Part shown: positions 28,201 to 61,540 of the stretch, in pieces
Position numbering within the stretch: the first letter of the stretch is position 1
Layout: each line of letters starts with the position of its first letter
NCBI GenBank assembly: GCA_027923505.1
Contig: BROI01000005.1
Location: 1,054,001 to 1,118,000, forward strand
Source: Mayamaea pseudoterrestris
Lineage: Eukaryota
Length of the DNA: 64,000 bases
Direction of reading: 5' to 3'
Position numbers and translations under genes: made by a program
The notes under the pieces: generated by a model
What the model saw: the letters and a program-made list of their open reading frames with translations, nothing else
Databases searched by the model: none
Told to the model about the DNA's origin: nothing

Positions 28201-29266
28201 CCTCCGCTCGCAGTACACTATTACAGTTGATAAAACAGGTATCACACTTAAATGGGACTATGACAAACGGATTTTGGAAATGAGCATTCCCAACTACGTC
28301 GCCAACGCGCTCAACCGATTCCAGCACCCGTATCCGTCCAAACAACAAGATGCTCCTCATCCTTGGACGGCCCCCGTTTATGGCGCCAAACAACAGTTTG
28401 TTGATGAAGACTGCACTGATCCCCTTCCTCCAGAAGGCTGCGTTCGCGTTCAACAAGTTTGCGGCGTTTTCCTCTTCTATGGGCGAGCCATTGACAACAC
28501 CATGCTCACGCCCGTCAATGAACTCGGCGCTGCCCAGGCCAAAGGCACAAAGAAGACTGAAGCTGCAATGGTTCAATTCCTTGATTACGCCGCTTGTCAT
28601 CCAGACGTGATCCTCGTCTTCCATGCCAGTGATATGGTCCTTCATTGCCACACAGACGCCTCCTACTTGACGGCCGCCAAAGCACGCTCCCGCATCGCTG
28701 CTTTCCATTTCCTCAGCTCCATGCCCACGGACCCCTTGAAAGCACCATCGCCTGATGCTCCTCCTCCTCCTGAAAATGGAGCAATCCACGTTGGATGCGA
28801 GCTATTGAAATGCGTCGTCTCCTCCGCCGCCAAGGCGGAGCTAGGCGGCGCCTTCCATTGCGCCAAAGACGCCACCGTTTTCCGCACAGCACTTGAAGAG
28901 CTCGGCCATCCTCAACCGCCAACGCTCATTCAAACAGATAACAGCTGCGTGGCAGGCATCGCCAATGGCACCGTCAAACACAAGCGCTCGAAAGCAATGG
29001 ACATGCGTTTCTACTGGATCAAGGATCGCATTGCTCAGGGCCAATTCATTCTCCATTGGCGCCGCGGTTGCGACAATTTAGCGGATTACTTTACCAAGCA
29101 CCATCCTGCAGTTCACCACCGCAAGATGCGCTCCCATTACGTAAAGGATCCTCCCAAGGCAACAGTCTCTCCCGAGACACCTTCCTTGCCAGGGTGTGTT
29201 GATACTCCACTTCCGGGTTCCTTATCCGGTATCCAAGGAAGCTGCACTGGCTCGGCTTCCACCTAA
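25229..29266 (+). pseudogene. pol: Retrotransposon Pol (PR-IN-RT-RNase H), one reading frame with two internal stops
   Basis: PR IADTGCT; IN HSDLTG..RLDNE..NAAERAI; RT ADISNFY, YGLKQAG, LVVDDF; RH HTDAS, QTDN, NLADYFTK; in-frame TAG 25469-25471 and TAA 27584-27586. Confidence 0.9.
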
Positions 29267-40498: not shown

Positions 40499-42682
40499 TC
40501 ACAATCGTATTTCACATCGTAAGTGATCATCAGTGGTGCCTCGCATTTCCCACTCAGGATCAAAATATCCCTCCACGCCCACCCGAAAATCCATCGATAC
40601 ACGGGTAAATATTGTCTCATTTGGATTCACATAATGACGACAGGAACTACCATGAAAAGCAACCACCTTGCCAAGCGTGGCTGCTAACGGATGGAAGTTT
40701 CCAATGTTGGGTTCTGATTCAGCCCAAAGATCAACTTTAGTCAAAGCTCTGTCAGTGAACGGTATCCAGAAGTTGAGCTCGCCATTTTGATGACCGTACT
40801 CAGCGTCGTTGTGAGCTTGCACCTGTGACCAGGCGGGGCCCGGCTGCAAGCGAATCGTCGGCGGCCGCTGATAGAAAAATGCAACACTACCTTCCATTTC
40901 AGTCGCAACTTCCAGAGCCACAAGGCGTCGCTTCACATATGGCAAAATATCGTCGACGACAAGCTTGTCAAATGCTTTGAGAAATAGTTCGTCATTGTGT
41001 AAAACCTCAGATAGATAGCGCTGAGCCTCCTCGCATTGTCCCCCATTCGCCGTTCGCCAGGTCGATGACGGAGGAACAACAAAATCTTCCAGGCGGTCGC
41101 TATCGTTTCGAAAGGCTCCTACAATCTGCGGATCGCATTGACGCAACATACATCGAACCGATGCAATTAATGCTTCCAAATTCTCCGCCGACTCCAATGC
41201 AAACACCGCTTCCTTTACTAATTCCTGTGGTAGCCATGGCGTGCCAGTTTCCGATCCCTCTCTGTTGCGAGGAAGAGGGTCATGTTTTCGATCACGCTTG
41301 TGACATTTGACGCGATGGGCAGACGACCGCAGCGTCGGTATTCCAGACAAATACGGCCAGTCAATTTGTTTGGCTGCTTCTCGTCGGCTTACATAATGCT
41401 TCAAATGACCGTTACCGACATCGTCGTCAGTGACAAAAGAAGAAGGTTCGATCCTCAGTATGGCTTTATGGTTGTTCGGTACACAGTAAATGGCACCGTT
41501 TGGTGCGACGGTCCCACCTTCCCATTTCGCCAAGCCCTTGTGAGGCGCAGGCAACTGCCAGGTGGTTATAATCGGCGGATCTGTTCGATAATCAATCTGT
41601 AAAACGCTCTCGGCTGCAAGTGGAATGGCGAACACAAGGCGTTCATTCGTAAGCGACACTCCATTCTGCCACTTGTTTTGGCAGAGGCGCTCTAGTCGTT
41701 GCTCATACACATTAGGACCAACTTGTCGAACCGTTCTGGCAACTGGATCAATCTGCAGTACCCGTTCGCTTCCACTAGGAAAGCAATAGACCATACCGTC
41801 CGATCCAGCCGATGCACCTAAAAATTTGTATCGCTTGTCGCGCCGATGTCTTCCTGTGACGATAACATTTGAGTCTCCCAACTGAAAGAGCTCAGGCTCT
41901 GGATATCCTGGCCGAATAACGAGCACACTGTCGGCATTGGCCGGTACCGATACTATGTCCCCATTTGAGGCTCCTGATGCACCATGCCACTTATGACCGC
42001 CACTGCCGAAGTTACCATGTAGAGTAACACCAGTATCTGGATGAATGCGCAATACGTGCGCACTATCGTGGGGAATACCGTAAATAGCATTATCAGGAGG
42101 TCGGCCCACGACTCCGCCATACCATTTCCAGCGTCCCTCCAACGCGGACCCAAATAAATGAAGTGAATCCGTCGCAGGATCAATGCAGAGTACATGGAGA
42201 GCCGACTGGGGGATCGTGTAAATCTTGCCGTCCGCTGGACAAACGGAACCGCCATGATACTTCCACTCAAGTTTTCGTTGCTGCTCCGCAAGCTGAAGGT
42301 CATTCTTGTATAATACTTCGTAAGGAATGGGAATGGTTGTGACTTGGTTTGTCTTTGTATCGATTCGAAGGACTGAATCGGCGTGACACGGTAAACCGTA
42401 AATGATGTCATTGACAACAATTCCTCGCAGCCATTTGAACTTCCCGGGCCATTTCGGACCGATTCTCTTGACTTTGTTTGTATCAATGTCGCATACCATT
42501 ACTCGAGGCGCATGTCCAGGAATGCAGTAAAAGCTGCGATCCACAACTTCACCTCCAAGATACAATGTCTGGCCCTGCAGAGGTTCATCGCCATCGTCGG
42601 ACTCGCTCTCGCACCACAAATACTGCAGTTTTGGACCTTTTTCGTAATCGATGCAATCACGAGGGAGTGCGTTGTTGTCCAT
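40499..42682 (-). CDS. Beta-propeller-like repeat protein fused to a StrG-like 2OG-Fe(II) dioxygenase domain
   Basis: About six KWxGG..G.IY.IP..A..VL.ID repeats; C-terminal YQRPPTIRLQPG..HNDAEYGH..ELNFWIP..RHY..N..TRVSMDFRV. Confidence 0.7.
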   Translation of the reverse strand: MDNNALPRDCIDYEKGPKLQYLWCESESDDGDEPLQGQTLYLGGEVVDRSFYCIPGHAPRVMVCDIDTNKVKRIGPKWPGKFKWLRGIVVNDIIYGLPCHADSVLRIDTKTNQVTTIPIPYEVLYKNDLQLAEQQRKLEWKYHGGSVCPADGKIYTIPQSALHVLCIDPATDSLHLFGSALEGRWKWYGGVVGRPPDNAIYGIPHDSAHVLRIHPDTGVTLHGNFGSGGHKWHGASGASNGDIVSVPANADSVLVIRPGYPEPELFQLGDSNVIVTGRHRRDKRYKFLGASAGSDGMVYCFPSGSERVLQIDPVARTVRQVGPNVYEQRLERLCQNKWQNGVSLTNERLVFAIPLAAESVLQIDYRTDPPIITTWQLPAPHKGLAKWEGGTVAPNGAIYCVPNNHKAILRIEPSSFVTDDDVGNGHLKHYVSRREAAKQIDWPYLSGIPTLRSSAHRVKCHKRDRKHDPLPRNREGSETGTPWLPQELVKEAVFALESAENLEALIASVRCMLRQCDPQIVGAFRNDSDRLEDFVVPPSSTWRTANGGQCEEAQRYLSEVLHNDELFLKAFDKLVVDDILPYVKRRLVALEVATEMEGSVAFFYQRPPTIRLQPGPAWSQVQAHNDAEYGHQNGELNFWIPFTDRALTKVDLWAESEPNIGNFHPLAATLGKVVAFHGSSCRHYVNPNETIFTRVSMDFRVGVEGYFDPEWEMRGTTDDHLRCEIRL

Positions 42683-43152
42683 ATTAAACAGGATAACTCA
42701 GAATAACTGGCTTAAGAAAGTGCCACTGTATGCATAGTCAGAATGGTCTGCTCTTCATGTTGTCGCCAAGCGAGAAAATTTCGTGGCGGAGCCTGAATAC
42801 CGGAGCGAGTTAATTCTCTCGAAGTTCATAGCTATGTCACACGATGTTTGTCCCTGCTAAATTTAAAGTTTGTGATAGTCTCATGCCGAAATGAAGTGTA
42901 CGGTACTTTGTATAATATAATTCATAACATGCAATTGACAGCTACAAGGAACTGAGATATCGATCGGTATGTTTCTACTGAGCGACTTGGTGATGTAATT
43001 AATCTTTTTGCACATGCATCTTTACAGCTTAGCTCGTCAAGTTTCGCGAACATTCATCCTTGACAGCTACCGGTAGATGACGATTATAGTAGTACTGTTA
43101 GCATAATAATTACGTAAAACGACTTGTTGAACGTATCAGATAATGTGCATAT

Positions 43153-44910
43153 CTACATTTCACATTTGCACCGAAAACCGCGCATGAAGGCTCCGGGAAC
43201 CAAGAGCTCCACTTCGGTCAACGGAGCACATCGACAGGACGACGGCTTGGGCCCTTCAATCTTACCAAGCTCATGCAGGTACAATCCCAGCGTCTTGATT
43301 CCATTCATAAGATTCTTGACGTTATACTTTTCGTTCTGTGAGTGAGCCATGTCGTCGCATGCCCCAATTGGTAGAAGCAAGACATTCATACCCGTTGCAT
43401 CCTCGAGAGCGGATGTAATCGGTATGCTGCCACCTTCACGCGTGTATTCTGGTTCGCATCCATAAACACGTTTTATAGCTGCGGCGGCCGCCTTATAGTT
43501 GGGATGATTCGGCGATGATAGCCACGACTTTGCGCCATGAATCATTCTGCACGAAAACGTGTTGGGCGATTCGGTCTGCATCATAATGAGATTATTAGTG
43601 TGAGCACAACAATGCACGAACTTAACATAGCGCAACCCGAAACGCACCAGGACCATTTGCTCAGCAACATGAGCTTTGACTAACTCCTCAATCTTGCTGA
43701 CGTCTTGGTCCGGGACAAGCCGAAGCGAGAACTTGCCAATCACTTTCGCTGGAATGACAGGCACCAATTCCACTAAACGCACCCTGTATTCCATGTATGG
43801 ACAATGTTGGAAATCTCCATCTGGACATGAGCAGCGTTTTTTTGTCGTCGTGCAAAAGTTTTCCGGACGTAATTCTGTTCTCTGCAGCGTACTCATCGAG
43901 GTTGAAGTCAATTGAATCGTAAAAAGCTTCCTCTTCAGGTGTGACATGCTTGACTTCGTCCATAATACCTTTTACAAGAATATTACCGTGTGAATCAACA
44001 AGTGTGCTCATCACTTTGACTAGATCCGTCATTGCTTCGTGCACAGTTCCACCAAGAACACCCTGTGCGAGGATTAATTGTGAGCGTCCTACAATCCCTT
44101 TCTCACTTGCATGTCACCCATGACCCGCAACTCACCGAGTGCAAGTCCTGCTCGCATCCCTGAACGGCCAACTCGAAGTACGCCATGCCACGAAGACCGT
44201 ATGTTAGACACGGTTTGTGCTTGCCGATCCAGTAATTATCCGAGATGCAAAAGAAGTCAACGTCACACAAGAAGCCGTCATTTTTCGCTTCCTCGTGAAT
44301 TGTTTCAAATAGGCCGTCGCTCCCAAACTCTTCCATTCCTTCAAATAATAGCTTGATGTTCACCGGCAAGTCAATTCCAAGTTCTTGGTGCGCCTCTATA
44401 ACCCAGAGCCATGAAAGTGCTGGACCCTTGTCATCTGTCGAGCCACGACCGTACAATTTCCCGTTCTTCTCAGTCAATACAAACGGATCCGTTTCCCACC
44501 CGTCTTCCTTGTCGGCTGGCTGGACGTCCAAATGCCCGTATACACAAAGAGTCTTTTTATTAGGATTTTTCGCCCACTCTGCCATGAGAATGGGCGGCAG
44601 TGAGCGCTTGTCAGTGGCTGCTGGGTTCGGCTGAAGCTTGACGAATCCTCCGAGTTTCCGAATCTCAGCAGTCGTCCATTCCATCATACGAACAATATCA
44701 TTTAAATGTCCCGGATCCGCTGATATGGAAGGGATGCTGTGGAGACGAAGGTACAACAAAAGATGTTTAGCCAGTGATATATTTGTTCTCAGCCACCGGA
44801 ATATGACGGAGCCAATCTTACGCCACCGCTTCTGCAAGTCGATCAATGTACAGCTGCCTGCGCTGATCGACATGATCGAAAAATCTGGATTGAACGTCAG
44901 CGTCGGTCAT
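43153..44910 (-). CDS. Cytosolic non-specific dipeptidase (M20A, CNDP2/Dug1-like); introns 44737-44821, 44063-44135, 43576-43647; frameshift at ~43759
   Basis: YGHLDVQPA, YGRGSTDDKGP, EGMEE, ISDNYW, DLHSG, PTLSIHGI, REGGSIP and AHSQNEK motifs; apparent 5-nt loss in GA[KT]VIPAKV. Confidence 0.9.
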
Positions 44911-45348: not shown

Positions 45349-47334
45349 CTACTCGGAGCTTTGTCGAACTAGCAGCGGATTCGACTCCTCATCGTTGCTA
45401 GTTTCTAGACCCTTCATCAGAGCTCCAGCCATGATTGGCTTACCTCCGTTATTACTCATTAACACACCGACTCCCGGCACCACCGGTGCGCTCCTGTACA
45501 AACTAGAAATAGTGCTTCGCTTCATTCTTGCCTCGGATTTCTTCTTCGGTCCAAACACTGACGAGCCACCAGCTCGCATCGAGCCAGACTTGTACAAGAC
45601 CGGACCAGTTCCGTACTTCAAGTATGCCGTATGACGCTTGGCGCGTATCAAAGGAGATTCATCACCCGCGCGACGTGGAGGCCGCTGCGGCGTCTTAGGC
45701 GACTTGAGCATGTCAACTGCCTGCTCCTCTATGCTTTCGACAAAACGCCTAACCGGCGGCAACATGTTTACCATCACACCGATGATCGAGATGGCAAACA
45801 AAACCCAAAAATAGGAACCAACATGCGCTGTCGCGTAATGATCCAATCGACCAATATTGGGAGTTCCATTGGAACTATTGAAACATCCTTTAAACAGTTG
45901 GTACAATGCAATACAAATCACATTCGGCAACCCACCTATGCAGAAAAGGTTTAACGCACTCGCGAGCACCTTGTTTTCCGGCGGCGCTGCCGTAAATGCC
46001 ACCTCGTAGGCAGCACTGACTGCGAAAATTTCGCCGGCTCCGATCAGGCAGTACGATAAGCATTGCCACAAGACAGAAATTGACTTTCCTGTCGAGTGGT
46101 ACACATGATGGATCCGCGCCTCGACGAATAATGCCCACAGTATTGCCATTGCGCCCAATAAAGATCCCAGGGCAAACTTATACGTTGTGGGCATCTTGAT
46201 GTTTCGTGCCGCAAGCGCAGGATAGAAAAAGTGCCCAATCAAGTACCCAAATAGTAAGACAGCTATGGCATCCGTGTTGTTCATGGTGGATGCATCAATG
46301 TAGTGAAACGCCTTGCGCATAACATTGCCCTGGATGATGAATGTCGTCGCCATTTGCGAGTAAGCAATGTTGAAGGGAATCACCAAAAGAGAGATTCGAA
46401 AAATGGCTAACAGTCCCATATTCGCGGAACCTGGCGGCCCTGGTGCAGGCGTCGACTTCTTTGTCTTCTTCTCAGGTGCGCATTTCACATAGCGGGAACT
46501 TCCACTCAAAAACACAAGGATTCCGACAGTCATGGCCACCACCGGAGTAAAGTACGCATATGTCACATTGGTTTGAGCCATGACTGGAACGACAATTCCA
46601 CCAATCAATGCTCCAATGTTGATGCACATGTAGAAGGAAACATAATAGCTTTCGATTAGAGACGACTGCAACAATGGGTGGAATTGCCGGGCACCAAAGA
46701 CGTTGACCATGCTTTTGAGAATCCCAGTTCCCATGGGCCACAATAAAAGTAATCCAAAGCGTAGAGCCATCGTGTTGAACTCTTTGCCAAGAAAGCCTGG
46801 AATGGTTGTCGCGGCAATCAAAACAAGCCCAGGCAAGTAAAAGCATAACGACCCGCAAAGAATGCTCCAGTAATCTCCGAGTACCGAGTCTGAAAGATAC
46901 GCGCCTATAAAGGGCATTGAATAGGCGACTGCGACAGAAATGGAAACGTAAGTCGATGCATCAACCGCATGCATCCCTGCGTTCCAATTTTTATCATAGG
47001 TTCCAGTCAAGTACGACGTCTGCGTCATATTTATTGCGTAGAATGAAAACCTTTCAATGAGCTCCACAATCAAGATGTACAAGACAGAATAAGTCATTGG
47101 ATTCAGTGCATGGCGAGTGTCCGTTCCAAACTCCGTGACATGGCGAAGCGGACGTCCCTTATCGCCACTGAGGCACTCGTCAGGAAGAAGAGACAGCTGC
47201 TCCGGTTGAGAAACATTGTTTGGGAGATCGTCCGAGTCGTCTGAGAGTGTTGGTGATGGAGGCATGGACGCTTGACGCGAGGTGCCGCCGAGGAGACTGG
47301 ACCCCTCATCAGGTCGATCGGCATTCGTCGCCAT
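45349..47334 (-). CDS. POT/PTR (NPF) proton-coupled oligopeptide/nitrate transporter
   Basis: ELIERFSFY (ExxER motif), GAYLSDSVLG, FYMCINIGALIG, YSQM and GAGEIF motifs; multiple TM helices. Confidence 0.92.
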   Translation of the reverse strand: MATNADRPDEGSSLLGGTSRQASMPPSPTLSDDSDDLPNNVSQPEQLSLLPDECLSGDKGRPLRHVTEFGTDTRHALNPMTYSVLYILIVELIERFSFYAINMTQTSYLTGTYDKNWNAGMHAVDASTYVSISVAVAYSMPFIGAYLSDSVLGDYWSILCGSLCFYLPGLVLIAATTIPGFLGKEFNTMALRFGLLLLWPMGTGILKSMVNVFGARQFHPLLQSSLIESYYVSFYMCINIGALIGGIVVPVMAQTNVTYAYFTPVVAMTVGILVFLSGSSRYVKCAPEKKTKKSTPAPGPPGSANMGLLAIFRISLLVIPFNIAYSQMATTFIIQGNVMRKAFHYIDASTMNNTDAIAVLLFGYLIGHFFYPALAARNIKMPTTYKFALGSLLGAMAILWALFVEARIHHVYHSTGKSISVLWQCLSYCLIGAGEIFAVSAAYEVAFTAAPPENKVLASALNLFCIGGLPNVICIALYQLFKGCFNSSNGTPNIGRLDHYATAHVGSYFWVLFAISIIGVMVNMLPPVRRFVESIEEQAVDMLKSPKTPQRPPRRAGDESPLIRAKRHTAYLKYGTGPVLYKSGSMRAGGSSVFGPKKKSEARMKRSTISSLYRSAPVVPGVGVLMSNNGGKPIMAGALMKGLETSNDEESNPLLVRQSSE

Positions 47335-48002
47335 GGACAAACGCTAATATCGCGATCAAGAACAAGACCTACAATTAACAGTAGATTGTTTTCCCTCGGA
47401 GAGCTATGAGTGTGTGCTATGGCCCGTCAGTACGGAAGTGCCGAAGGGGGAAGAAGAAGTGAGAAGAAGGCCGGCGAGTCGATGGACATGAACATGCGAT
47501 CGGCAGCAGGCGCGGCCGATCGAGTCATGCACGACCAGGTCATTATGAAAAGCTGTCGTATGAGAACGTAGAACGCCACTTTTCAATATTCTTTAACCGG
47601 ATGTGATTGACTGTGAGTTGCGCTGTGCCTCGACTCTAACAAACCATTCCGACTCCAGAACACATTCGCGGGGTGGGGAGGTGGCAGGATCAATGGTTTC
47701 ACAGAGCCTGCGAAGACTTTTACGCGCTCCGCGCACACAAAGACTGCCAAACAGTGGTGCCAACAATTTTAGTCTATGTGGAACAGAAGGAGAGGCTAGA
47801 GATTGCAGTAATTGAGTGGTAATTGATGGCTCTCTGAGAGCATACTCCTAAAGTATAGCAATGTGTTTGGGATAGCTAACACGTTTATTATTAGACATCA
47901 TTGCATGCACCACAACCATGACATCATCTAGGTCACAGCTGCAGTATTCCATGTAATGTCGTGAGACATGTCCGGATATATCCTTCTGCAACCAACTCCA
48001 TT

Positions 48003-48137
48003 GTGCTACAGTGTGTGGCCTTCAATGACTCCCCCAATAGTCTTGTTCCATGAATTCTGTTCTGGCTATCCTTGGAGACACATATTTGGTGAGATTGGTG
48101 CATTACAGTCACTCCCAGCCCACGTGTAGCATCAGTT
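48003..48137. repeat. Partial copy of satellite B (176-bp family)
   Basis: GTGCTACAGTGTGTGGCCTTCAATGACT..CACGTGTAGCATCAGTT matches monomers at 55950-56527. Confidence 0.85.
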
Positions 48138-48251
48138 TGCTATATGGAATAATACAAGTCCTCCAAGATATTTGCTAAAGAGATGATCTAAGGGCAAAGG
48201 GACATCACACATGAGGCATATGCAGCAAGTGCTGCTATTTCCGGCAACCCC

Positions 48252-51200
48252 TGGTGAGAAGTTCTCACCAGTCTCAGCCCGCAGATGCCATGACATTCAG
48301 ACACACCTACAGCAAGCCCGATAGGTGCCCAAATTACACCAGAATGGTGCCACCATCATTATTCAAGCTGCGCTACAAGATGGTAGGCTTGGCTGGTGTC
48401 TCAGGGGATGGCAATGTATTTGGCTATAACTTGTCACCAGTCTCAGCCCGCAGATGCCATGACATTCAGACACACCTACAGCAGGCCCAGTAGGTGCCCA
48501 AATTACAGCAGAATGATGCCAACGTCATTATTCAGGCCGCGCTACAAGATGGTTTGCCTGGCTGGTGTCTCAGGGGATGGCAATGTATTTGGTGACAACT
48601 TGACACCAGTCTCAGCCTGCAGATGCCATGACATTCAAACACACCTACAGCAGGCCCTGTAGGTGCCCAAACTACACCAGAATGGTGCCAACATCACAAT
48701 TCAAACTGCGCTACAAGATGGTAGGCTTGGCTGGTGTCTCAGGGGATGGCAATGTATTTGGTGACAACTTGTCACCAGTCTCAGCCTGCAGATGCCATGA
48801 CATTCAGACACACCTACAGCATGCCCGGTAGGTGCCCAAACTACACCAGAATGGTGCCAACATCCTTATTAAGGCTGCGCTACAAGATGGTATGTCGCGC
48901 TGGTGTCTCAGGGGATGGCAATGTATTTGGTGACAACTTGTCACCAGTCTCAGCCCGCAGATGCCATGACATTCAAACGCCCCTACAGCAAGCCCTGTAG
49001 GTGCCCAAACTACACCAGAATGGTGCCAACATCATTATTCAGGCCGCGCTACAAGATGGTATGCCTGGCTGGTGTCTCAGGGGATGGCAATGTATTTGGT
49101 GACAACTTGTCACCAGTCTCAGCCTGCAGATGCCATGACATTCAGACACACCTACAGCATGCCCTGTAGGTGCCCAAATTACACCAGAATGTTGACAACA
49201 TCCTTATTCAGGCTGCGCTACAAGATGGTTGACTTGGCTGGTGTCTCAGGGGATGGCAATGTATTTGGTGACAACTTGTCACCAGTCTCAGCCTGCAGAT
49301 GCCATGACATTCAGACACACCTGCAGCAGGCCCGGCAGGTGCCCAAATTACACCAGAATGATGTCAACATCATTACTCAGGCTGCGCTACAAGATGGTAG
49401 GCTTGGCTGGTGTCTCAGGGGATGGCAATGTATTTGGTGACAACTTGTCACCAGTCTCAGCCTGCAGATGCCGTGACATTCAAACACACCTACAGCAAGC
49501 CCTGTAGGTGCCCAAAATACACCAGAACGGTGCCAACATTATTATTAAGGCTGCGCTATAAGATGGTAGGCTTGGCTGGTGTCTCAGGGGATGGTAATGT
49601 ATTTGGTGACAACTTGTCACTAGTCTCAGCCTGCAGATGCCGTGACATTCAAACGCCCCTACAACAAGCCCTGTAGGTGCCCAAACTACACCAGAATGGT
49701 GCCAACATCATAATTCAAACTGCGCTAGAAGATGGTAGGCTTGGCTTGTGTCTTAGGGGATGGCACTGTATTTGGTGACAACTTGTCACCAGTCTCAGCC
49801 TGCAGATGCCATGACATTCAGACACACCTACAGCATGCCCGGTAGGTGCCCAAATTACACCAGAATGTTGCCAACATCCTTATTCAGGCTGCGCTACAAG
49901 ATGGTTGACTTGGCTGATGTCTCAGGGGATGGCAATGTATTTGGTGACAACTTGTCACCAGTCTCAGCCTGCAGATGCCATGACATTCAGACACACCTGC
50001 AGCAGGCCCGGCAGGTGCCCAAATTACACCAGAATGATGCCAACATAATTACTCAGGCTGCGCTACAAGATGGTAGGCTTGGCTGGTGTCTCAGGGGATG
50101 GCAATGTATTTGGTGACAACTTGTCACCAGTCTCAGCCTGCAGATGCCGTGACATTCAAACACACCTTCAGCAGGCCCGGCAGGTGCCCAGATTACACCA
50201 GAATGGTGCCAACATCATAATTCAAACTGCGCTAGAAGATGGTAGGCTTGGCTTGTGTCTTAGGGGATGGCAATGTATTTGGTGACAACTTGTCACCAGT
50301 CTCAGCCTGCAGATGCCATGACACTCAGACACACCTACAGCAAGCCCTGTAGGTGCCCAAAAACACCAGATCGGTGCCAACATCCTTATTCAGGCTGCGC
50401 TACAAGTCGGTAGGCTTGGCTGGTGTCTCAGGAGATGGTAATGTATTTGGTGACAACTTGTCACTAGTCTCAGCCTGCAGATGCCCTGACATTCAAACGC
50501 CCCTACAGCAAGCCCTGTAGGTGCCCAAACTACACCAGAATGGTGCCAACATCCTTATTCAGGCTGCGCTACAAGATGGTTGACTTGGCTGGTGTTGTAT
50601 TTGGTGACAACTTGTCACCAGCTGCAGATGCCATAACATTCAAACACACCTACAGCAAGCCCTGTAGGTGCCCAAAATACACCAGAATGATGCCAACATC
50701 ATTATGCAGGCTGCGCTACAAGATGGTAGGCTTGACTGGTGTCTCAGGGGATGGCAATGTATTTGGTGACAACTTGTCACCAGTCTCAGCCCGCAGATGC
50801 CATGACATTCAGACACACCTACAGCAAGCCCTGTAGGTACCCAAATTACACCAGAATGGTGCCAACATTATTATTAAGGCTGCGCTATAAGATGGTAGGC
50901 TTGGCTGGTGTCTCAGGGGATAGTAATGTATTTGGTGACAACTTGTCACTAGTCTCAGCCTGCAGATGCTGTGACATTCAAACGCCCCTACAACAAGCCC
51001 TGTAGGTGCCCAAACTACACCAGAATGGTGCCAACATCATAATTCAAACTGCGCTAGAAGATGGTAGGCTTGGCTTGTGTCTTAGGGGATGGCAATGTAT
51101 TTGGTGACAACTTGTCACCAGTCTCAGCCTGCAGATGCCATGACATTCAGACACACCTACAGCATGCCCGGTAGGTGCCCAAATTACACCAGAATGGTGC

Positions 51201-54200
51201 CAACATCCTTATTCAGGCTGCGCTACAAGATGGTTGACTTGGCTGGTGTCTCAGGGGATGGCAATGTATTTGGTGACAACTTGTCACCAGTCTCAGCCTG
51301 CAGATGCCGTGACATTCAAACACACCTACAGCAAGCCCTGTAGGTGCCCAAAAACACCAGATCGGTGCCAACATTATAACTTAGGCTGCGCTACAAGATG
51401 GTAGGCTTGGCTGGTGTCTCAGGGGATGGCAATGTATTTGGTGACAACTTGTCACCAGTCTCAACCCGCAGATGCCATGACATTCAGACACACCTACAGC
51501 AGGCCCTGTAGGTGCCCAAATTACACCAGAATGGTGCCAACATCCTTATTCAGGCTGCGCTACAAGATGGTTGACTTGGCTGGTGTCTCAGGGGATGGCA
51601 ATGTATTTGGTGACAACTTGTCACCAGTCTCAGCCCGCAGATGCCATGACATTCAGACACACCTACAGCAGGCCCTGTAGGTGCCCAAATTATGGTGAGA
51701 AGTTCTCACCAGTCTCAGCCCGCAGATGCCATGACATTCAGACACACCTACAGCAAGCCCGATAGGTGCCCAAATTACACCAGAATGGTGCCACCATCAT
51801 TATTCAAGCTGCGCTACAAGATGGTAGGCTTGGCTGGTGTCTCAGGGGATGGCAATGTATTTGGCTATAACTTGTCACCAGTCTCAGCCCGCAGATGCCA
51901 TGACATTCAGACACACCTACAGCAGGCCCAGTAGGTGCCCAAATTACAGCAGAATGATGCCAACGTCATTATTCAGGCCGCGCTACAAGATGGTTTGCCT
52001 GGCTGGTGTCTCAGGGGATGGCAATGTATTTGGTGACAACTTGACACCAGTCTCAGCCTGCAGATGCCATGACATTCAAACACACCTACAGCAGGCCCTG
52101 TAGGTGCCCAAACTACACCAGAATGGTGCCAACATCACAATTCAAACTGCGCTACAAGATGGTAGGCTTGGCTGGTGTCTCAGGGGATGGCAATGTATTT
52201 GGTGACAACTTGTCACCAGTCTCAGCCTGCAGATGCCATGACATTCAGACACACCTACAGCATGCCCGGTAGGTGCCCAAACTACACCAGAATGGTGCCA
52301 ACATCCTTATTAAGGCTGCGCTACAAGATGGTATGTCGCGCTGGTGTCTCAGGGGATGGCAATGTATTTGGTGACAACTTGTCACCAGTCTCAGCCCGCA
52401 GATGCCATGACATTCAAACGCCCCTACAGCAAGCCCTGTAGGTGCCCAAACTACACCAGAATGGTGCCAACATCATTATTCAGGCCGCGCTACAAGATGG
52501 TATGCCTGGCTGGTGTCTCAGGGGATGGCAATGTATTTGGTGACAACTTGTCACCAGTCTCAGCCTGCAGATGCCATGACATTCAGACACACCTACAGCA
52601 TGCCCTGTAGGTGCCCAAATTACACCAGAATGTTGACAACATCCTTATTCAGGCTGCGCTACAAGATGGTTGACTTGGCTGGTGTCTCAGGGGATGGCAA
52701 TGTATTTGGTGACAACTTGTCACCAGTCTCAGCCTGCAGATGCCATGACATTCAGACACACCTGCAGCAGGCCCGGCAGGTGCCCAAATTACACCAGAAT
52801 GATGTCAACATCATTACTCAGGCTGCGCTACAAGATGGTAGGCTTGGCTGGTGTCTCAGGGGATGGCAATGTATTTGGTGACAACTTGTCACCAGTCTCA
52901 GCCTGCAGATGCCGTGACATTCAAACACACCTACAGCAAGCCCTGTAGGTGCCCAAAATACACCAGAACGGTGCCAACATTATTATTAAGGCTGCGCTAT
53001 AAGATGGTAGGCTTGGCTGGTGTCTCAGGGGATGGTAATGTATTTGGTGACAACTTGTCACTAGTCTCAGCCTGCAGATGCCGTGACATTCAAACGCCCC
53101 TACAACAAGCCCTGTAGGTGCCCAAACTACACCAGAATGGTGCCAACATCATAATTCAAACTGCGCTAGAAGATGGTAGGCTTGGCTTGTGTCTTAGGGG
53201 ATGGCACTGTATTTGGTGACAACTTGTCACCAGTCTCAGCCTGCAGATGCCATGACATTCAGACACACCTACAGCATGCCCGGTAGGTGCCCAAATTACA
53301 CCAGAATGTTGCCAACATCCTTATTCAGGCTGCGCTACAAGATGGTTGACTTGGCTGATGTCTCAGGGGATGGCAATGTATTTGGTGACAACTTGTCACC
53401 AGTCTCAGCCTGCAGATGCCATGACATTCAGACACACCTGCAGCAGGCCCGGCAGGTGCCCAAATTACACCAGAATGATGCCAACATAATTACTCAGGCT
53501 GCGCTACAAGATGGTAGGCTTGGCTGGTGTCTCAGGGGATGGCAATGTATTTGGTGACAACTTGTCACCAGTCTCAGCCTGCAGATGCCGTGACATTCAA
53601 ACACACCTTCAGCAGGCCCGGCAGGTGCCCAGATTACACCAGAATGGTGCCAACATCATAATTCAAACTGCGCTAGAAGATGGTAGGCTTGGCTTGTGTC
53701 TTAGGGGATGGCAATGTATTTGGTGACAACTTGTCACCAGTCTCAGCCTGCAGATGCCATGACACTCAGACACACCTACAGCAAGCCCTGTAGGTGCCCA
53801 AAAACACCAGATCGGTGCCAACATCCTTATTCAGGCTGCGCTACAAGTCGGTAGGCTTGGCTGGTGTCTCAGGAGATGGTAATGTATTTGGTGACAACTT
53901 GTCACTAGTCTCAGCCTGCAGATGCCCTGACATTCAAACGCCCCTACAGCAAGCCCTGTAGGTGCCCAAACTACACCAGAATGGTGCCAACATCCTTATT
54001 CAGGCTGCGCTACAAGATGGTTGACTTGGCTGGTGTTGTATTTGGTGACAACTTGTCACCAGCTGCAGATGCCATAACATTCAAACACACCTACAGCAAG
54101 CCCTGTAGGTGCCCAAAATACACCAGAATGATGCCAACATCATTATGCAGGCTGCGCTACAAGATGGTAGGCTTGACTGGTGTCTCAGGGGATGGCAATG

Positions 54201-55133
54201 TATTTGGTGACAACTTGTCACCAGTCTCAGCCCGCAGATGCCATGACATTCAGACACACCTACAGCAAGCCCTGTAGGTACCCAAATTACACCAGAATGG
54301 TGCCAACATTATTATTAAGGCTGCGCTATAAGATGGTAGGCTTGGCTGGTGTCTCAGGGGATAGTAATGTATTTGGTGACAACTTGTCACTAGTCTCAGC
54401 CTGCAGATGCTGTGACATTCAAACGCCCCTACAACAAGCCCTGTAGGTGCCCAAACTACACCAGAATGGTGCCAACATCATAATTCAAACTGCGCTAGAA
54501 GATGGTAGGCTTGGCTTGTGTCTTAGGGGATGGCAATGTATTTGGTGACAACTTGTCACCAGTCTCAGCCTGCAGATGCCATGACATTCAGACACACCTA
54601 CAGCATGCCCGGTAGGTGCCCAAATTACACCAGAATGGTGCCAACATCCTTATTCAGGCTGCGCTACAAGATGGTTGACTTGGCTGGTGTCTCAGGGGAT
54701 GGCAATGTATTTGGTGACAACTTGTCACCAGTCTCAGCCTGCAGATGCCGTGACATTCAAACACACCTACAGCAAGCCCTGTAGGTGCCCAAAAACACCA
54801 GATCGGTGCCAACATTATAACTTAGGCTGCGCTACAAGATGGTAGGCTTGGCTGGTGTCTCAGGGGATGGCAATGTATTTGGTGACAACTTGTCACCAGT
54901 CTCAACCCGCAGATGCCATGACATTCAGACACACCTACAGCAGGCCCTGTAGGTGCCCAAATTACACCAGAATGGTGCCAACATCCTTATTCAGGCTGCG
55001 CTACAAGATGGTTGACTTGGCTGGTGTCTCAGGGGATGGCAATGTATTTGGTGACAACTTGTCACCAGTCTCAGCCCGCAGATGCCATGACATTCAGACA
55101 CACCTACAGCAGGCCCTGTAGGTGCCCAAATTA
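48252..55133. repeat. Satellite A: 169-bp tandem monomers arranged as two 3441-bp higher-order units (48252-51692, 51693-55133)
   Basis: Consensus TGGTGACAACTTGTCACCAGTCTCAGCCTGCAG..GGCAATGTATT is 169 nt; identical ORF translations recur at +3441 (48396/51837, 50540/53981, 51414/54855). Confidence 0.97.
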
Positions 55134-56527
55134 TTTGGCAGGGCAGAGGTCCACATAGTAACCAGCTACACAGTGCTACAGTGTGTGGACTTCAAAGACT
55201 ACCCCTGATTGTCGTGTTCCATGAATTCTGTCCTGGCTTTGCATGGGGACACATATGCGGTGAGATTGAAGCATAACAATTATTCCCGGCTCATATGTAG
55301 CATTGGTTGTTTGGCAGAGCAGAGGTCCACACAGTAACCAGCTAGACGGTGCTACATGTGTATGTATTTGGTGACAACTTGTCACCAGTTCAGCCTGCAG
55401 ATGCCATGACATTCAGACACACCTACAGCAAGCCCAATAGGGACCCAAACTACACCAGAACGGTGCCAACATCCTTATTCAGGCAGCGCTACAAGATAGT
55501 ATGCCTGGCTGGTGTCTCAGGTGTTGGCAATGTGACTGGTGAGAAGTTCTCACCAGTCTTGGCCTGCAGATGCCATGACATTCAAACGCCCCTACAGCAA
55601 GCCCTGTAGGTGCCCAACTTATTTGGCAGGGCAGAGGTCCACATAGTAACCAGCTACACAGTGCTACAGTGTGTGGACTTCAAAGACTACCCCCGATTGT
55701 CGTGTTCCATGAATTCTGTCCTGGCTATGAATTGGGACACATATGCGGTGAGATTGATGCATAACAATTATTCCCAGCTCACTTGTAGCATTGGTTGTTT
55801 GGCAGAGCAGAGGTCCACACCAGCTAGACGGTGCTACATGTGTGGCCTTTAACGACTACCCTCAATGGTCTTGTTCCATAATTTCTGTTCTTGCTATCCT
55901 TGGGGACACATATGCTGTGAGCAAAGATTTACACAGTAACCGCCACACGGTGCTACAGTGTGTGGCCTTCAATGACTAACCACAATGGTCTTGTTCCGTG
56001 AATTCTGTTTTGGCTGCTCTTGGGGACATGTATGTGGTGAGATAGGTGCATAACAACCACTACCAGCTCACGTGTAGCATCAGTTGTTTGGGAGGGCAAA
56101 GATCCACGCAGTAACCAGCTACATGGTGCTACATGTGTGGCCTTCAAAAAATTTCCCCATTCTGTTCTGGCTATCCTTGGATACATGTATGCGGTGTGAT
56201 CGGTGCATAACAATCACTCCCAGCTCACGTGTAGCATCTGTTATTTGGGAGGACAAAGATCCACACTGTAACTAGCTACAAGGTGCTACAGTGTGTGGCC
56301 TTCAATGACTACACCCAATAGTCTTGTTCCATGTATTCTGTTCTGGCTATATTTGGGGACACGTATGCTGTGAGATTGGTGCATAACAGTCACTCCCAGC
56401 TAACGTGTAGTATCCGTTATTTGGGAGGGCAAAGATCCACACAGTAACTAGCTACAAGGTGCTACAGTGTATGGCCTTCAACGACTACCCCCAATAGTCC
56501 TGTTCCATGAATTCTGTTCTGGCTATG
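55134..56527. repeat. Satellite B (176-bp monomers, some with deletions) interrupted by ~1.5 satellite A monomers (~55361-55620)
   Basis: GTGCTACA anchors at 55173, 55349, 55661, 55831, 55950, 56126, 56283 and 56459; intact spacing is 176. Confidence 0.9.
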
Positions 56528-56844
56528 GAAAATATGCATGCAGAATAATTTATGGGAAACTCCTCCGCAAAGTACGACTACCGGTAGGGTACTCGTTCTC
56601 CTATTGGTGTGAATTGTTTATTCCTTCCCCATGCATATTTCAGAAACAGCTGCAAAAGGTGTGCATTGCAATGTAGCTGCGTGCGACGGCCGAGCGGAAC
56701 AATCGCTAGCGTCGTTGTCACATAGCAATACCACTGACAACAAATTTCATTTGTTCGGGCAGACAGTCCAAAGCTAGAATTATGATGCTTGTTGAAGTTT
56801 GTAGGGTTCAAATGCAGAAAATGGCTTTATAGACACATCAAGGG

Positions 56845-57777
56845 TCATCTTTTTCGCTTCTTTTTCTTCTTCCGACTGCGCTCCACTCCGACCAGAATCG
56901 CAGCTTCCTCCTCCACTCGCCTACGAGTTAGCATCTCACTTCGGCGTCTCAGTTTAGCCTCGCGCTCGTAAACAACTTGCATCAACCGTGTAGCCCCTTC
57001 AGTCAATCTCTGCTCAAAAAGCTTCAAACAATCTCGTCGCGTGCTTTCGTCAAGCTCTATCCGCAGCGCTCCTTGCCCATTCTCATTGTAGTAGTGCTCG
57101 AGAATAATGCAAGCCGCCTCCGCGTCCAACGTTCCGTACAACGACCGACCAGGATGATCAGCATGCGCTCGAGCGGCCGCTTCTTTAGAGGTGTATCGCT
57201 CGTCCCAAAGAATCACAGGCAAATTCGCACCCAAAGAAGCCACAACGTAGCGCATCAGCTCGGCAGCAAAGACGAGTGTTATGTTGGTTTGCTCTGCAAG
57301 CGTTCCATTTTTGTGAAGGGGCAAGCCGACAACGATCTGTGACGCTTGTTCGCTTCGTGCGTACTGGACAATCCGTTCGCAGAGTTGCGTACTGTTTAAA
57401 TCAGTCAAAATAGCCAAGGGTGTGGGCTGATAGCCAACAGACGTTGCAATTCCTGTGCGAACAAGTCCAAAATCGACGCCAATTGTCCTTATTCCAATGA
57501 GTGTGCAAGAGTTCTGCGTCGAAGCAGCTGCCGCGTCAATGACGGCTTGATACTGGCCGAGTCTTGTCGTGTTGTTCACTCTCATCGAAAGGAGAGAGAC
57601 CGCTGCAGAAACCGTACTGTCAACTGCCAGCAATGAAGATTCTCGCTTGTGTTTGACATTAAGTCGTCGCGTTGCACGTTTCCACGGATTGGATGAAGTC
57701 CTAGGAGGCACAAGCAACCAAGCTCGGGCAAATTGGACCGAAAGCAGACACAAAACTGAATTGTAAATTGCTTTCAT
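56845..57777 (-). CDS. YqgF/RuvX RNase H-fold nuclease, probably plastid-targeted
   Basis: IGVDFGLVRTGIA, IVVGLPL, LWDERYTSKEA and LDAEAACIILE motifs; signal peptide ending ARA-WLL. Confidence 0.88.
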   Translation of the reverse strand: MKAIYNSVLCLLSVQFARAWLLVPPRTSSNPWKRATRRLNVKHKRESSLLAVDSTVSAAVSLLSMRVNNTTRLGQYQAVIDAAAASTQNSCTLIGIRTIGVDFGLVRTGIATSVGYQPTPLAILTDLNSTQLCERIVQYARSEQASQIVVGLPLHKNGTLAEQTNITLVFAAELMRYVVASLGANLPVILWDERYTSKEAAARAHADHPGRSLYGTLDAEAACIILEHYYNENGQGALRIELDESTRRDCLKLFEQRLTEGATRLMQVVYEREAKLRRRSEMLTRRRVEEEAAILVGVERSRKKKKKRKR

Positions 57778-58090: not shown

Positions 58091-61000
58091 TTAAGACATA
58101 GTAGCTCTTTGCAATTCAAACAAGGCGATGCTGCCGTCCGCGCCTCCAGTGCAGCAGAGGCATTTTCTTGGATCCGCGACCCCAACATTAACGACGCTCA
58201 TGGAGGTTATTCCAGGCGCAGTCTTGTTGTTCACCTTGGTCCACAACGTTGGCCTTGAATCAAAGTGCGCTCCATCACGAAGTCCAATGAGTCGCAAACC
58301 TCCATCAGAGCAGCCAAGTAGCACCACCCTTTGATCTGAACAATACGCCAAGGAAGAAACGGCAACGCCAACGGATACAGCGCTGTCCCGTTTGAGACGT
58401 TCCCCTGCCATGGAATAACTCGCTACTTTTCCAGTTGAAAAGGCTACTAGCAAGTGAAGAGCACCATTTACAGTAATCCACCTGACTACCGAACAAGGAC
58501 CAGATCCGTGAAGCTTCGTAGTCTCGTTATGAATGGCGACTTGCATCCCGTCACCGTGGACGAACCATGCACAGAAGCTTGAGTCGACGCAGCCTGCGGC
58601 AATGACAATGCATCCGTTCGAGTAAGCTACGCCCGCGGCCGAAACACAGACCACTGAAGATTGTGCGTCAAACAATTCAGCGAGCGGTTCGCGATCTATT
58701 GACACTGCTTCCGATTTTGTAACGTTGACACTCCACACCTTCACCGCTGCATCCCATGACCCTGATATCAAAATATGTGTAGAGTCTTTCCGCCAGAGGG
58801 CGCTCTCTAAATCAAGTGGAGTGCGACAAATAAGATCCAAGCCTGTGACTGCATCGCGATGGGAATAGACTGTGGCGACAGCACAAGCTGATGTAACCCC
58901 ATAAGCCAGCACCACATCGTCATGGCCCCCAGCAAAAGCGATCATCCCGCCGCCTCCGTCATTGGCAAGCGCTAGAGACGCGAGAGGGTCTCGACTCGTG
59001 TGGGAACGGAATTCGCTCAACTTGGATTGGATAATAATCCTGCTTGCAACTTTTCCACGGTTCAGAATCGCACTGTAGGAAAATCGGCCAAAGGCGGGCG
59101 GAAGCACCATACGCTCACCATCGTCTTCACTTTCATCACTTACGGTAATCTGATGTACCTTGAGACCGCCATCATGGCTCGAGGTTACAAGAATCGATCC
59201 AACTGAGTTATTTAGTTCGAGTACACAGCCTGACACAGAATCGTTGTGCATATGTTTGCGCTCAATCATATGCATGTTCCATTCATTAGCCGTAGTGTTG
59301 GATAGTTGATCAAATGTTGAAGAGACTTGGGATGACCCACCGGGCGCGACAGACATCACGGCACCCGGCAACAATGACTGTTCGCCTATGCCCTGACTAA
59401 TTTGGGAAATAGTTGCAGCTGGGCTTATAGTAGCGCCTTGCATATACTTCGTCTCGGCCTCCATATTGTTGTGCGACGCTTGCTCGTCGATGAATGCGTT
59501 GCCAATGCCTCGTACGTCGAGTAACTCCCAAGCTTCTCGTCCCTTGTCGTCCTCTTTACTAGACGCCCGTCCGATGTCACTAGAGATAAAATTTAACTCG
59601 CTGGTATCATCTTTTCTTTGCGGATGCGTATTCACAAAAAGCTGGTCTGGGCAGCATCCGAACTCGCAAGCTTGCAGCTCGGCTGAATGGCGCTCTTCTT
59701 CAGACTTCATAGCTGCTAGTTCAGTCGGTCCAAAGTAGCTGATCGGATGGAAAAGATTGTCTGCTTTTGCGGCAGCGTCGCCACGTGAATTACTCCCGAA
59801 TATCAGATCGATCCAATGTGGTAACTTTGTCGTACATAAATCAGACTCTAGAGCTAGACGATTCTTTTTCAAAAAATCCTTTGCCGACTTGGCCCATGTT
59901 GGCAACCTCACATCATCGACGCGCTGGCCTTTCTGCGTTGCTCCCAGATGCAGACCTCTCGCGTTTATAAGAAAATCGATATTATTCCCATAAAACTCAG
60001 GTATAAGCTCTTTTACATCCGCATGGTTTGAGAGCACACAATTGAACGTGTTTTCAACGTCAAAAAACATTCTGTCCGCCGCATCAAATTTGCCGTTCTG
60101 TAGACAAAGCATGTGCTCTGGCATGCTGCGGACCAAGTAATAGAGTACATAAGCAGGAGCCGAGTAGTGCGTTCCGTACAAGAATTTGCCTCCCATGTCA
60201 TGCATGTTCTTCATGCGCGTCTTAAAGTAATCAAGGCGTTCCTGATTTAATGCTCCAACGGGTTTCGACAAGTCCCGATATGTACCTGCACATTGCAAAT
60301 TTAGCTTTTTTGTGCTGCATCCATAGTCCTGGATCACCCATGGAAAGACAGGATACCGACCAAGGTCATGAAAGGTCCGGCCTGCTGCCGAATTCAGCGC
60401 CAACAAGTATTGATAATTAGTGAGCGTTCCTTTCTGCCATTCCGCAAATGCACGTTCTACAAAAATTCTGTCCGTGAAGCACACAACATTCGGTAGTGCT
60501 AGCAAAACTTGCTCTCGGTCATGGCGGCGTTCAAGGGCGATCAAAATCGACGACCCAGATTGGAAGTAAATTTGAATGGCCGAATCACGAAGCCCGTTAT
60601 AGCGTCTCGCTGTGGCAATCACGTCCCGAAGCAGCCAATTGTTAGCGGGAGGAGGATTGGTTTTTTGCTCAACAAGAGTCGATCCCTGGGTCGGCTGTAA
60701 GTACAATCTCTCCGCGGTTAGTGCCAGGACAACCGGTTGACTCAAAAGTGGTGTCTTGATGGACGCCTTTATGTTTGTCAGCGCTACAGACTCGCGCATG
60801 TCGACAAGATTTTCAGCGTAAAAAAATGCCTCGGACCCCCTCGCCACCATTATGGTCGTGTCGTCTCGCTGCGCATCATACACCACCTCCTCGACCATAG
60901 TGCAAAACGTATCCGGCGAAGAATGTTGAAAGACAAACTTGAAGGCGCCAGCGTGCTTCACTAACGCAGTAGGAGCAATAACGTTATTTTCTTTCATGAT

Positions 61001-61540
61001 GAAGTGACGTTGCGAGATACATTGCACAGCAGCCTCCGCCGAATCAATAATACTGGGAGGTGCATCCATGTTAGCAAAGGGAAGTCGCACAATTGCTCGG
61101 GTGACTTCGTTAGGTTCAAAGACAAGAGACTTCGAACACAGGTGGAGGCGGCCATGGATTCCTGACATGTTAAAAAATGAAAATGATTCTTTTTGTTTTG
61201 TGTCGGAAGTTGTCGGGTTTGGATGCAGATCACTTAAGTGGGACGTCGTTGATTGTGTTTGCTGCGCCCACTGAATGTTTGGATCCTTACTGGCTGCACG
61301 AGCGGTACTTTGCTCATTTAGACTACTATTCATAAGCACCGCACTAGAAAACCCAAGTACTGCCCAGTCTTGAAGTATGCACTCGCCATGCTCCAGAAGA
61401 AGTTGGGAGAATCGATTGGTAGCCGCTTGCCGAGGTGGCGGTTCGAGTGCTTGCAGAATTTCCTTCGTAAACGAAAACGCTTTGTTAGCGTTTCCTTCTC
61501 TCGCAGAGGAGATCCCAAGCCACTCACTGACTCTCGTCAT
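58091..61540 (-). CDS. BEACH-domain protein (FAN/NSMAF-like: GRAM/PH-BEACH-WD40)
   Basis: RFSQLLLEHGE, GRLHLCSKSLVFEP, WQKG..NYQYL..LN..GRTFHDL..YPVFPW, YGTHYS, DVKELIPEFY, LPHWIDLIFG and SGSWDAAVKVW motifs. Confidence 0.92.
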   Translation of the reverse strand: MTRVSEWLGISSAREGNANKAFSFTKEILQALEPPPRQAATNRFSQLLLEHGECILQDWAVLGFSSAVLMNSSLNEQSTARAASKDPNIQWAQQTQSTTSHLSDLHPNPTTSDTKQKESFSFFNMSGIHGRLHLCSKSLVFEPNEVTRAIVRLPFANMDAPPSIIDSAEAAVQCISQRHFIMKENNVIAPTALVKHAGAFKFVFQHSSPDTFCTMVEEVVYDAQRDDTTIMVARGSEAFFYAENLVDMRESVALTNIKASIKTPLLSQPVVLALTAERLYLQPTQGSTLVEQKTNPPPANNWLLRDVIATARRYNGLRDSAIQIYFQSGSSILIALERRHDREQVLLALPNVVCFTDRIFVERAFAEWQKGTLTNYQYLLALNSAAGRTFHDLGRYPVFPWVIQDYGCSTKKLNLQCAGTYRDLSKPVGALNQERLDYFKTRMKNMHDMGGKFLYGTHYSAPAYVLYYLVRSMPEHMLCLQNGKFDAADRMFFDVENTFNCVLSNHADVKELIPEFYGNNIDFLINARGLHLGATQKGQRVDDVRLPTWAKSAKDFLKKNRLALESDLCTTKLPHWIDLIFGSNSRGDAAAKADNLFHPISYFGPTELAAMKSEEERHSAELQACEFGCCPDQLFVNTHPQRKDDTSELNFISSDIGRASSKEDDKGREAWELLDVRGIGNAFIDEQASHNNMEAETKYMQGATISPAATISQISQGIGEQSLLPGAVMSVAPGGSSQVSSTFDQLSNTTANEWNMHMIERKHMHNDSVSGCVLELNNSVGSILVTSSHDGGLKVHQITVSDESEDDGERMVLPPAFGRFSYSAILNRGKVASRIIIQSKLSEFRSHTSRDPLASLALANDGGGGMIAFAGGHDDVVLAYGVTSACAVATVYSHRDAVTGLDLICRTPLDLESALWRKDSTHILISGSWDAAVKVWSVNVTKSEAVSIDREPLAELFDAQSSVVCVSAAGVAYSNGCIVIAAGCVDSSFCAWFVHGDGMQVAIHNETTKLHGSGPCSVVRWITVNGALHLLVAFSTGKVASYSMAGERLKRDSAVSVGVAVSSLAYCSDQRVVLLGCSDGGLRLIGLRDGAHFDSRPTLWTKVNNKTAPGITSMSVVNVGVADPRKCLCCTGGADGSIALFELQRATMS

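Follow-up and report, generated by a model that had tools for sequence, protein, structure and literature searches.

Two interlocked satellite families in a gene-dense region of the diatom Mayamaea pseudoterrestris

Primate alpha satellite is made of AT-rich monomers of ~170 bp arranged in higher-order repeats, and satellites with short dyad symmetries or non-B DNA are reportedly found at centromeres, in the work of Kasinathan and Henikoff. The diatom centromeres characterised or predicted so far are of another kind. Those of Phaeodactylum tricornutum are described as low in guanine plus cytosine (GC; 100-bp windows at or below 32%) and without repeats (10.1101/096016), and those predicted in Fistulifera solaris have 36-42% GC and are without highly repeated elements (10.1101/2021.11.10.468027). 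In Tribolium castaneum, the euchromatic arms of the chromosomes are reported to harbor families of satellite-like tandem repeats of ~170 bp (PMC4675708). The subject of this work is a stretch of 64,000 nucleotides from the diatom Mayamaea pseudoterrestris (contig BROI01000005.1, positions 1,054,001 to 1,118,000 of the forward strand), henceforth the window, which harbors at 48252-55133 a tandem array of a 169-bp sequence that we name family A.

Among known kinds of repeat, the nearest is ordinary satellite DNA whose short arrays are dispersed in gene-rich DNA, as reported for Tribolium (PMC4675708). Both systems have short arrays of satellite length that lie among genes, and families that are abundant elsewhere in the genome. 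They differ, however, in that the host is here a diatom, that two families are interlocked, and that the repeats are known at the scale of a locus instead of a chromosome-scale map. With the diatom centromeres cited above, the locus has in common the lineage, broadly taken, and a size of a few kilobases; yet the whole two-family block described below (~8.5 kb, 47986-56526) consists purely of repeats, with 48-50% GC, while the centromeres of P. tricornutum and F. solaris are presented as low-GC and repeat-free. The interpretation that we favor, with a probability of about 0.7, is that the block is a small, dispersed island of two unrelated, non-coding satellites that lies between ordinary nuclear genes of a pennate diatom, has probably been methylated and silent for a long time, and would grow by segmental duplication.

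Analysis with Tandem Repeats Finder yielded a period of 169 bp across 48252-55133, and the array comprises 40 complete and 2 partial monomers. An earlier note, made from the sequence alone, had described a 169-bp satellite of ~41 monomers at these positions, and had also proposed that a 3441-bp unit is present twice. Both statements hold. Direct comparison of 48252-51692 with 51693-55133, the two unit copies (both on the + strand), gave 0 mismatches in 3441 bases. The match continues for 0 bases leftward and 1 base rightward, so that the limits of the 3441-bp unit are fixed to within 1 bp. When the unit is split at the conserved monomer start, it comprises 20 monomers (m1 to m20) and an 85-bp partial monomer (m21p). 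Sixteen monomers are 169 bp long, two (m13 and m19) have 168 bp, and the remaining two have 154 bp (m14) and 162 bp (m15) as a consequence of deletions of 15 nt and 7 nt, respectively, that lie ~30 bp apart. The earlier count of 20 monomers plus an 85-bp partial, two of them with 1-nt deletions and a single one with deletions of 15 and 7 nt, is thus the same anatomy read in another register. In the middle of the array, at 51692/51693, A position 85 is followed by A position 1; the junction is out of register and has 1 bp of microhomology. The monomers are arranged head-to-tail and belong to one length class, as those of satellite DNA do. An origin of the monomer from two half-monomers was considered and rejected: positions 1-85 and 86-169 share merely a 10-base match.

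The 20 full monomers of a unit have a mean pairwise identity of 91.2% (range, 84.0-98.8%). Inside the unit, identity is flat with respect to the lag between monomers, about 90-93% (90.3-92.6% for lags 1-12), save for two local segmental copies. One of these is the nested copy that had been noticed at +1329, about 8 monomers away: it involves three monomers at lag 8 (m8, at 49435, and m16, at 50764, are 96% identical; m9 and m17, 99%; m10 and m18, 99%). The other involves two monomers at lag 4 (m6 and m10, 98%; m7 and m11, 99%). In the alignment, m12 (50111-50279) has the appearance of a mosaic, with a first half of the m7/m11 type and a second half of the m9/m17 type. The pattern looks like that which gene conversion or exchange within the array would give.

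Alpha-satellite-like higher-order organisation, another proposal of the earlier note, can be maintained in a loose sense. The two unit copies (100% identical) are far more alike than the monomers (mean, 91%), which is the relationship found in higher-order repeats, and the monomer has the ~170 bp of primate alpha satellite. However, repetition of the unit in register and many times over, as in alpha satellite, is not seen: the unit is not a whole number of monomers (20 and 85 bp, or 20.5), there are only two copies, the joint between them is out of register, identity does not rise periodically with the lag inside the 3441 bp, and the GC content is 50%. No sequence kinship with alpha satellite is claimed.

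A second satellite, of ~176 bp, lies on both sides of the A array (47986-48137 and 55131-56526), as revealed by a blastn search of the window with one unit of this second repeat as query. This satellite, family B, had been overlooked in the earlier anatomy, which was otherwise sound as regards the A array; 1.5 further A monomers at 55369-55621 and the very high copy number of family A had also escaped attention. A relationship between both families was rejected, as the best local alignment of A with B involves 11-14 bases only. On the left side, B positions 108-175 and then 1-84 occupy 47986-48137 on the + strand (blastn identities, 88% and 87%). Between B position 84 and the first A base lies a 114-bp spacer (48138-48251) that matches only itself, being single-copy in the window, and that belongs to the CpG-poor domain described below. 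On the right side, the families are interleaved in the order A-B-A-B, all on the + strand. The array ends in an A monomer truncated at position 85, which is fused to B position 83, and B units (positions 83-175, then 1-138) follow at 55131-55361. The 1.5 additional A monomers (positions 1-166 and 1-85; blastn, 92% and 89%) are embedded in B at 55369-55621, and a B array of ~5 units, some of them truncated, runs from 55619 to 56526 according to Tandem Repeats Finder and blastn. The same A-to-B joint, with the same letters, is found at 55621/55622, and a segment of ~315 bp that carries the A85-B83 joint is duplicated with ~93% identity. A composite segment A85-B93-B137 can be recognized at 55049-55361 and again at 55537-55850, with ~93% identity and a spacing of 488 bp. 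Because this composite is duplicated, A and B also build a mixed repeat unit. Family B would be the frame in which family A sits.

The abundance of both families was examined in public sequencing runs. Seven runs from 2 studies contain part of the stretch, and none of them is on record as RNA. Four runs, here called X1, X2, X4 and X5 (X4 and X5 belong to the same study as X1, and X2 to the other), were compared by the assembled contigs that matched 47900-51800 with at least 90% identity. In X1, 65,987 of the 555,133 contigs matched, and in X2 the figure was 30,623 of 560,787; matches were 622 of 812,177 contigs in X4 and 336 of 9,369,044 in X5. Many matching contigs bear joints and loose ends unlike those of this locus. 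In X2, contigs that match the left flank perfectly have a depth of 5.9-9.9. The summed word depth per array bin, which is not a copy number, ranges from 548 to 562,320, and bins that contain B range from 439 to 1,216. Contig counts and X2 bin depths thus indicate that family A is a very high-copy repeat of the genome and that family B is moderately repeated. High copy number at more than one locus, as expected of a satellite, follows for family A from the contig counts and the differing joints.

The same runs provide information on the left edge of the array. X2 contigs cover 48075-48280, including the spacer, with 0 mismatches and a depth of 5.9-9.9, and one of them crosses the edge with 29 letters on the array side, which is below the 31-letter rule for bridging and was not counted as such. 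In X1, a contig of 224 letters with a depth of 286 matches the spacer (48138-48251) at 93% and ends exactly at the edge of the array. A diverged copy of the spacer with the same array boundary may thus exist in the other organism, the one sampled in X1.

A further trait of the block is the scarcity of CpG. The observed/expected ratio of CpG is 0.23 in family A and 0.30 in family B, with TpG+CpA values of 1.73 and 1.60, respectively. Outside the block, the ratio is 1.05 in window positions 1-47000 (TpG+CpA, 1.19), 0.93 in the left intergenic DNA (1.24), and 1.04-1.18 in three flanking open reading frames (ORFs; 1.14-1.20). The limits are sharp: in bins of 300 bp, the ratio falls from 1.02 to 0.22 at 47.8 kb and climbs from 0.37 to 0.91 at 56.5 kb. 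Among the 63 variable columns of the monomer alignment, 15 touch a CpG in some copies, and CpG alternates with TpG or CpA at monomer positions such as 29, 39, 52, 69, 94 and 118. Because the CpGs of the block have decayed to TpG or CpA while those of genes at a distance of a few hundred bases persist, we infer that cytosine methylation has probably been long-standing and confined to the block, which would be silent chromatin. The earlier note had offered a satellite centromere, a heterochromatin island or a structural array as candidates. Leaving the centromere for later, satellite and structural array fit a locus that is non-coding, tandem and abundant, and that coincides with a sharply bounded domain of CpG depletion; heterochromatin is probable, as judged from the scarcity of CpG.

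Turnover of the block would proceed by the usual satellite mechanisms, namely local segmental duplications, mosaics of the kind that gene conversion produces, and illegitimate joins. In the latest step of this scheme, the entire 3441-bp A segment would have been duplicated in tandem by means of a non-homologous, out-of-register joint. As the joint links A85 to A1, in-register unequal crossing-over would not produce the duplication. The exact duplication looks like either a single non-homologous tandem duplication or a product of the assembly.

Several considerations weigh against the island interpretation. The limits of the duplicated segment are precisely those of the A array, namely its first base on one side and the A85/B83 joint on the other. 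Such a match is not predicted by tandem duplication at random, and an assembly problem or another mechanism could lie behind it. The copy number and the sizes of the arrays cannot be read from contigs, and relatives or carry-over within one study may account for the few matches in X4 and X5. Exact-match scans of metagenome contigs with conserved monomer motifs of 26 nt and 28 nt retrieved 0 loci each, a kind of search that diverged relatives escape. Lastly, the depletion of CpG, being seen in two repeat families, counts as no more than two independent sequences.

The first of these considerations gives shape to an alternative: the array would be real and its exact 2 x 3441 bp an artifact, the true locus having one unit or more than two, with copies made equal by collapse or polishing. 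The absence of any difference in 3441 bases is suspicious in an array whose older internal copies differ by 1-4%; the limits of the unit coincide with those of the A array, and the abundance of family A makes mis-recruited reads plausible. However, long reads easily cross a 3.4-kb array that lies between unique flanks, the odd A85-to-A1 joint must come from reads that carry it, and the window is without any N. None of the listed contigs spans the stretch, and the joint 51692/51693 is neither supported nor contradicted by them. On balance, we hold an assembly product to be unlikely.

A second alternative is that the block is a centromere or part of one, with family A as the centromeric satellite of the species and the dyads of its monomer as an aid to the loading of CENH3 or the kinetochore. 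The monomer is nucleosome-sized, family A is abundant, and two dyads with 9-bp arms are perfect in the monomer consensus. One (P1) has a 1-nt loop and occupies monomer positions 1-19 (49097-49115 in m6, for example), with 98.4% of cells paired across 21 distinct monomer halves; the other (P2) has a 6-nt loop and occupies positions 53-76 (49149-49172 in m6), with 89.4% of cells paired. Taken together, the dyads are paired in 93.9% of cells over the 21 distinct monomer halves. The number of such dyads expected in a consensus is 0.10, compared with 2 observed, and 0.5% of 2000 shuffles reach 2. Each dyad also presents one compensatory change (C-G to G-C in m1 and in the copy at 55537; A-T to G-C in m7/m11). 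The compensation is confined, however, to 3 cells in 2 pairs, and 2 such pairs are also reached in 49 of 500 shuffles; the compensatory evidence is thin. With the dyad-bearing satellites of centromeres, family A has in common two strong dyads per monomer; it differs in that the whole monomer is not unusually foldable, and the link with a centromere is here only a candidate one.

Other observations bear on the same question. In favor of a centromere, no competing candidate is seen in these 64 kb, because there is no low-GC tract of the Phaeodactylum type. The lowest GC content of the window, 40.6% per 500 bp, is found at 42.7 kb (42600-43200) and well exceeds that of the 32% windows in Phaeodactylum centromeres. 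The array itself, with a GC fraction of 0.50 and a repetitive sequence, departs from a low-GC and repeat-free tract, and so does the window, with its minimum of 0.406. Against a centromere, the block is small and its connection with CENH3 is purely hypothetical; family A occurs on tens of thousands of different contigs; and the centromeres so far characterised or predicted in diatoms are short, low-GC and non-repetitive (10.1101/096016; 10.1101/2021.11.10.468027), as opposed to the 50% GC of the array. We therefore regard a centromeric role as highly unlikely. Its most specific version, in which the block would be the small regional centromere of a ~1.24-Mb contig and compensatory changes would preserve the dyad boxes as a signal for loading, has an even slimmer chance. 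If family A were centromeric, diatom centromeres would not all be low-GC and repeat-free.

Coding capacity and structure were also considered. Since a period of 169 bp is not divisible by 3, no frame is conserved across monomers, and a comparison of 5 array ORFs with Pfam gave sub-threshold zinc-finger noise only, with no family above the cut-off; on both grounds, a coding repeat was rejected. A structured monomer was discarded as well, because the predicted fold of a near-consensus monomer does not surpass those of its shuffles (z = -0.17). A search of 47500-52000 against Rfam gave 0 matches with E at or below 1. In the DNA outside the arrays (47300-48260 and 55130-57000), terminal inverted or direct repeats were not detected, except for one 16-nt pair at 56530/56625; element ends being absent around the arrays, transposon cargo was rejected too. 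Satellite-like arrays in gene-rich DNA of other organisms are often spread by transposons, and a copia-type element with an RVT_2 match slightly below the cut-off lies 19 kb away; nevertheless, cargo or internal repeat of a mobile element (of the Helitron, miniature inverted-repeat or long terminal repeat type) is extremely improbable in a block without terminal repeats outside its arrays and flanked by B satellite instead of transposon ends, as is a structured RNA or a repeat protein in view of the Rfam, Pfam, period and folding results.

The region around the island is gene-dense, as the earlier note had perceived. To the left, an ORF of the PTR2/POT transporter family (45349-47340, - strand; Pfam PF00854, E 2.1e-41) has its 5' end 646 bp from the repeat block. 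To the right, a RuvX/YqgF-like ORF (56845-57777, - strand; Pfam PF03652, E 2.5e-25) has its 3' end 319 bp from the block, and a BEACH-domain ORF, identified in a Pfam search, follows at 58091-61540 on the - strand. Among 120 matches listed for the RuvX-like protein, the named relatives are all pennate diatoms (Cylindrotheca, Nitzschia, Amphora, Fistulifera and Fragilaria), with 45-53% identity. The protein itself was found on a single contig, of 1,239,468 bases, and the best of its other relatives shares 65% identity with it. In view of these relatives, of the small number of runs and of the repeat load, Phaeodactylum, to which the earlier note had turned for background, is an unlikely source of the DNA.

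Elsewhere in the window, the segment 24000-29300 is GC-rich (0.53-0.59), with strong negative GC skew and long ORFs on the + strand. One of them (27623-29266, + strand), ~19 kb from the array, has a copia-type RVT_2 match of 31.2 bits, slightly below the cut-off of 31.6. A short CAACAA/CGG microsatellite is found at 25009-25055, within this retrotransposon-like region. Telomere repeats were not detected in the 64-kb window.

Satellite DNA has scarcely been described in diatoms. No paper on a diatom satellite was found among the matches listed in full-text literature searches, which, given the large sets of hits, is weak evidence of absence. Model diatoms are repeat-poor, in contrast to the satellite load observed here: in a pennate diatom, one family of 169 bp makes up 5-12% of all the assembled contigs of a run (X1 and X2). 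The locus raises questions about heterochromatin, about the boundaries of DNA methylation beside genes, and about the type of centromere in this lineage. It would be useful for the study of methylation spreading, of changes in copy number, and of the effect of the block on the adjoining transporter gene, and it is convenient for such measurements because it is compact, can be spanned, and has unique flanks.

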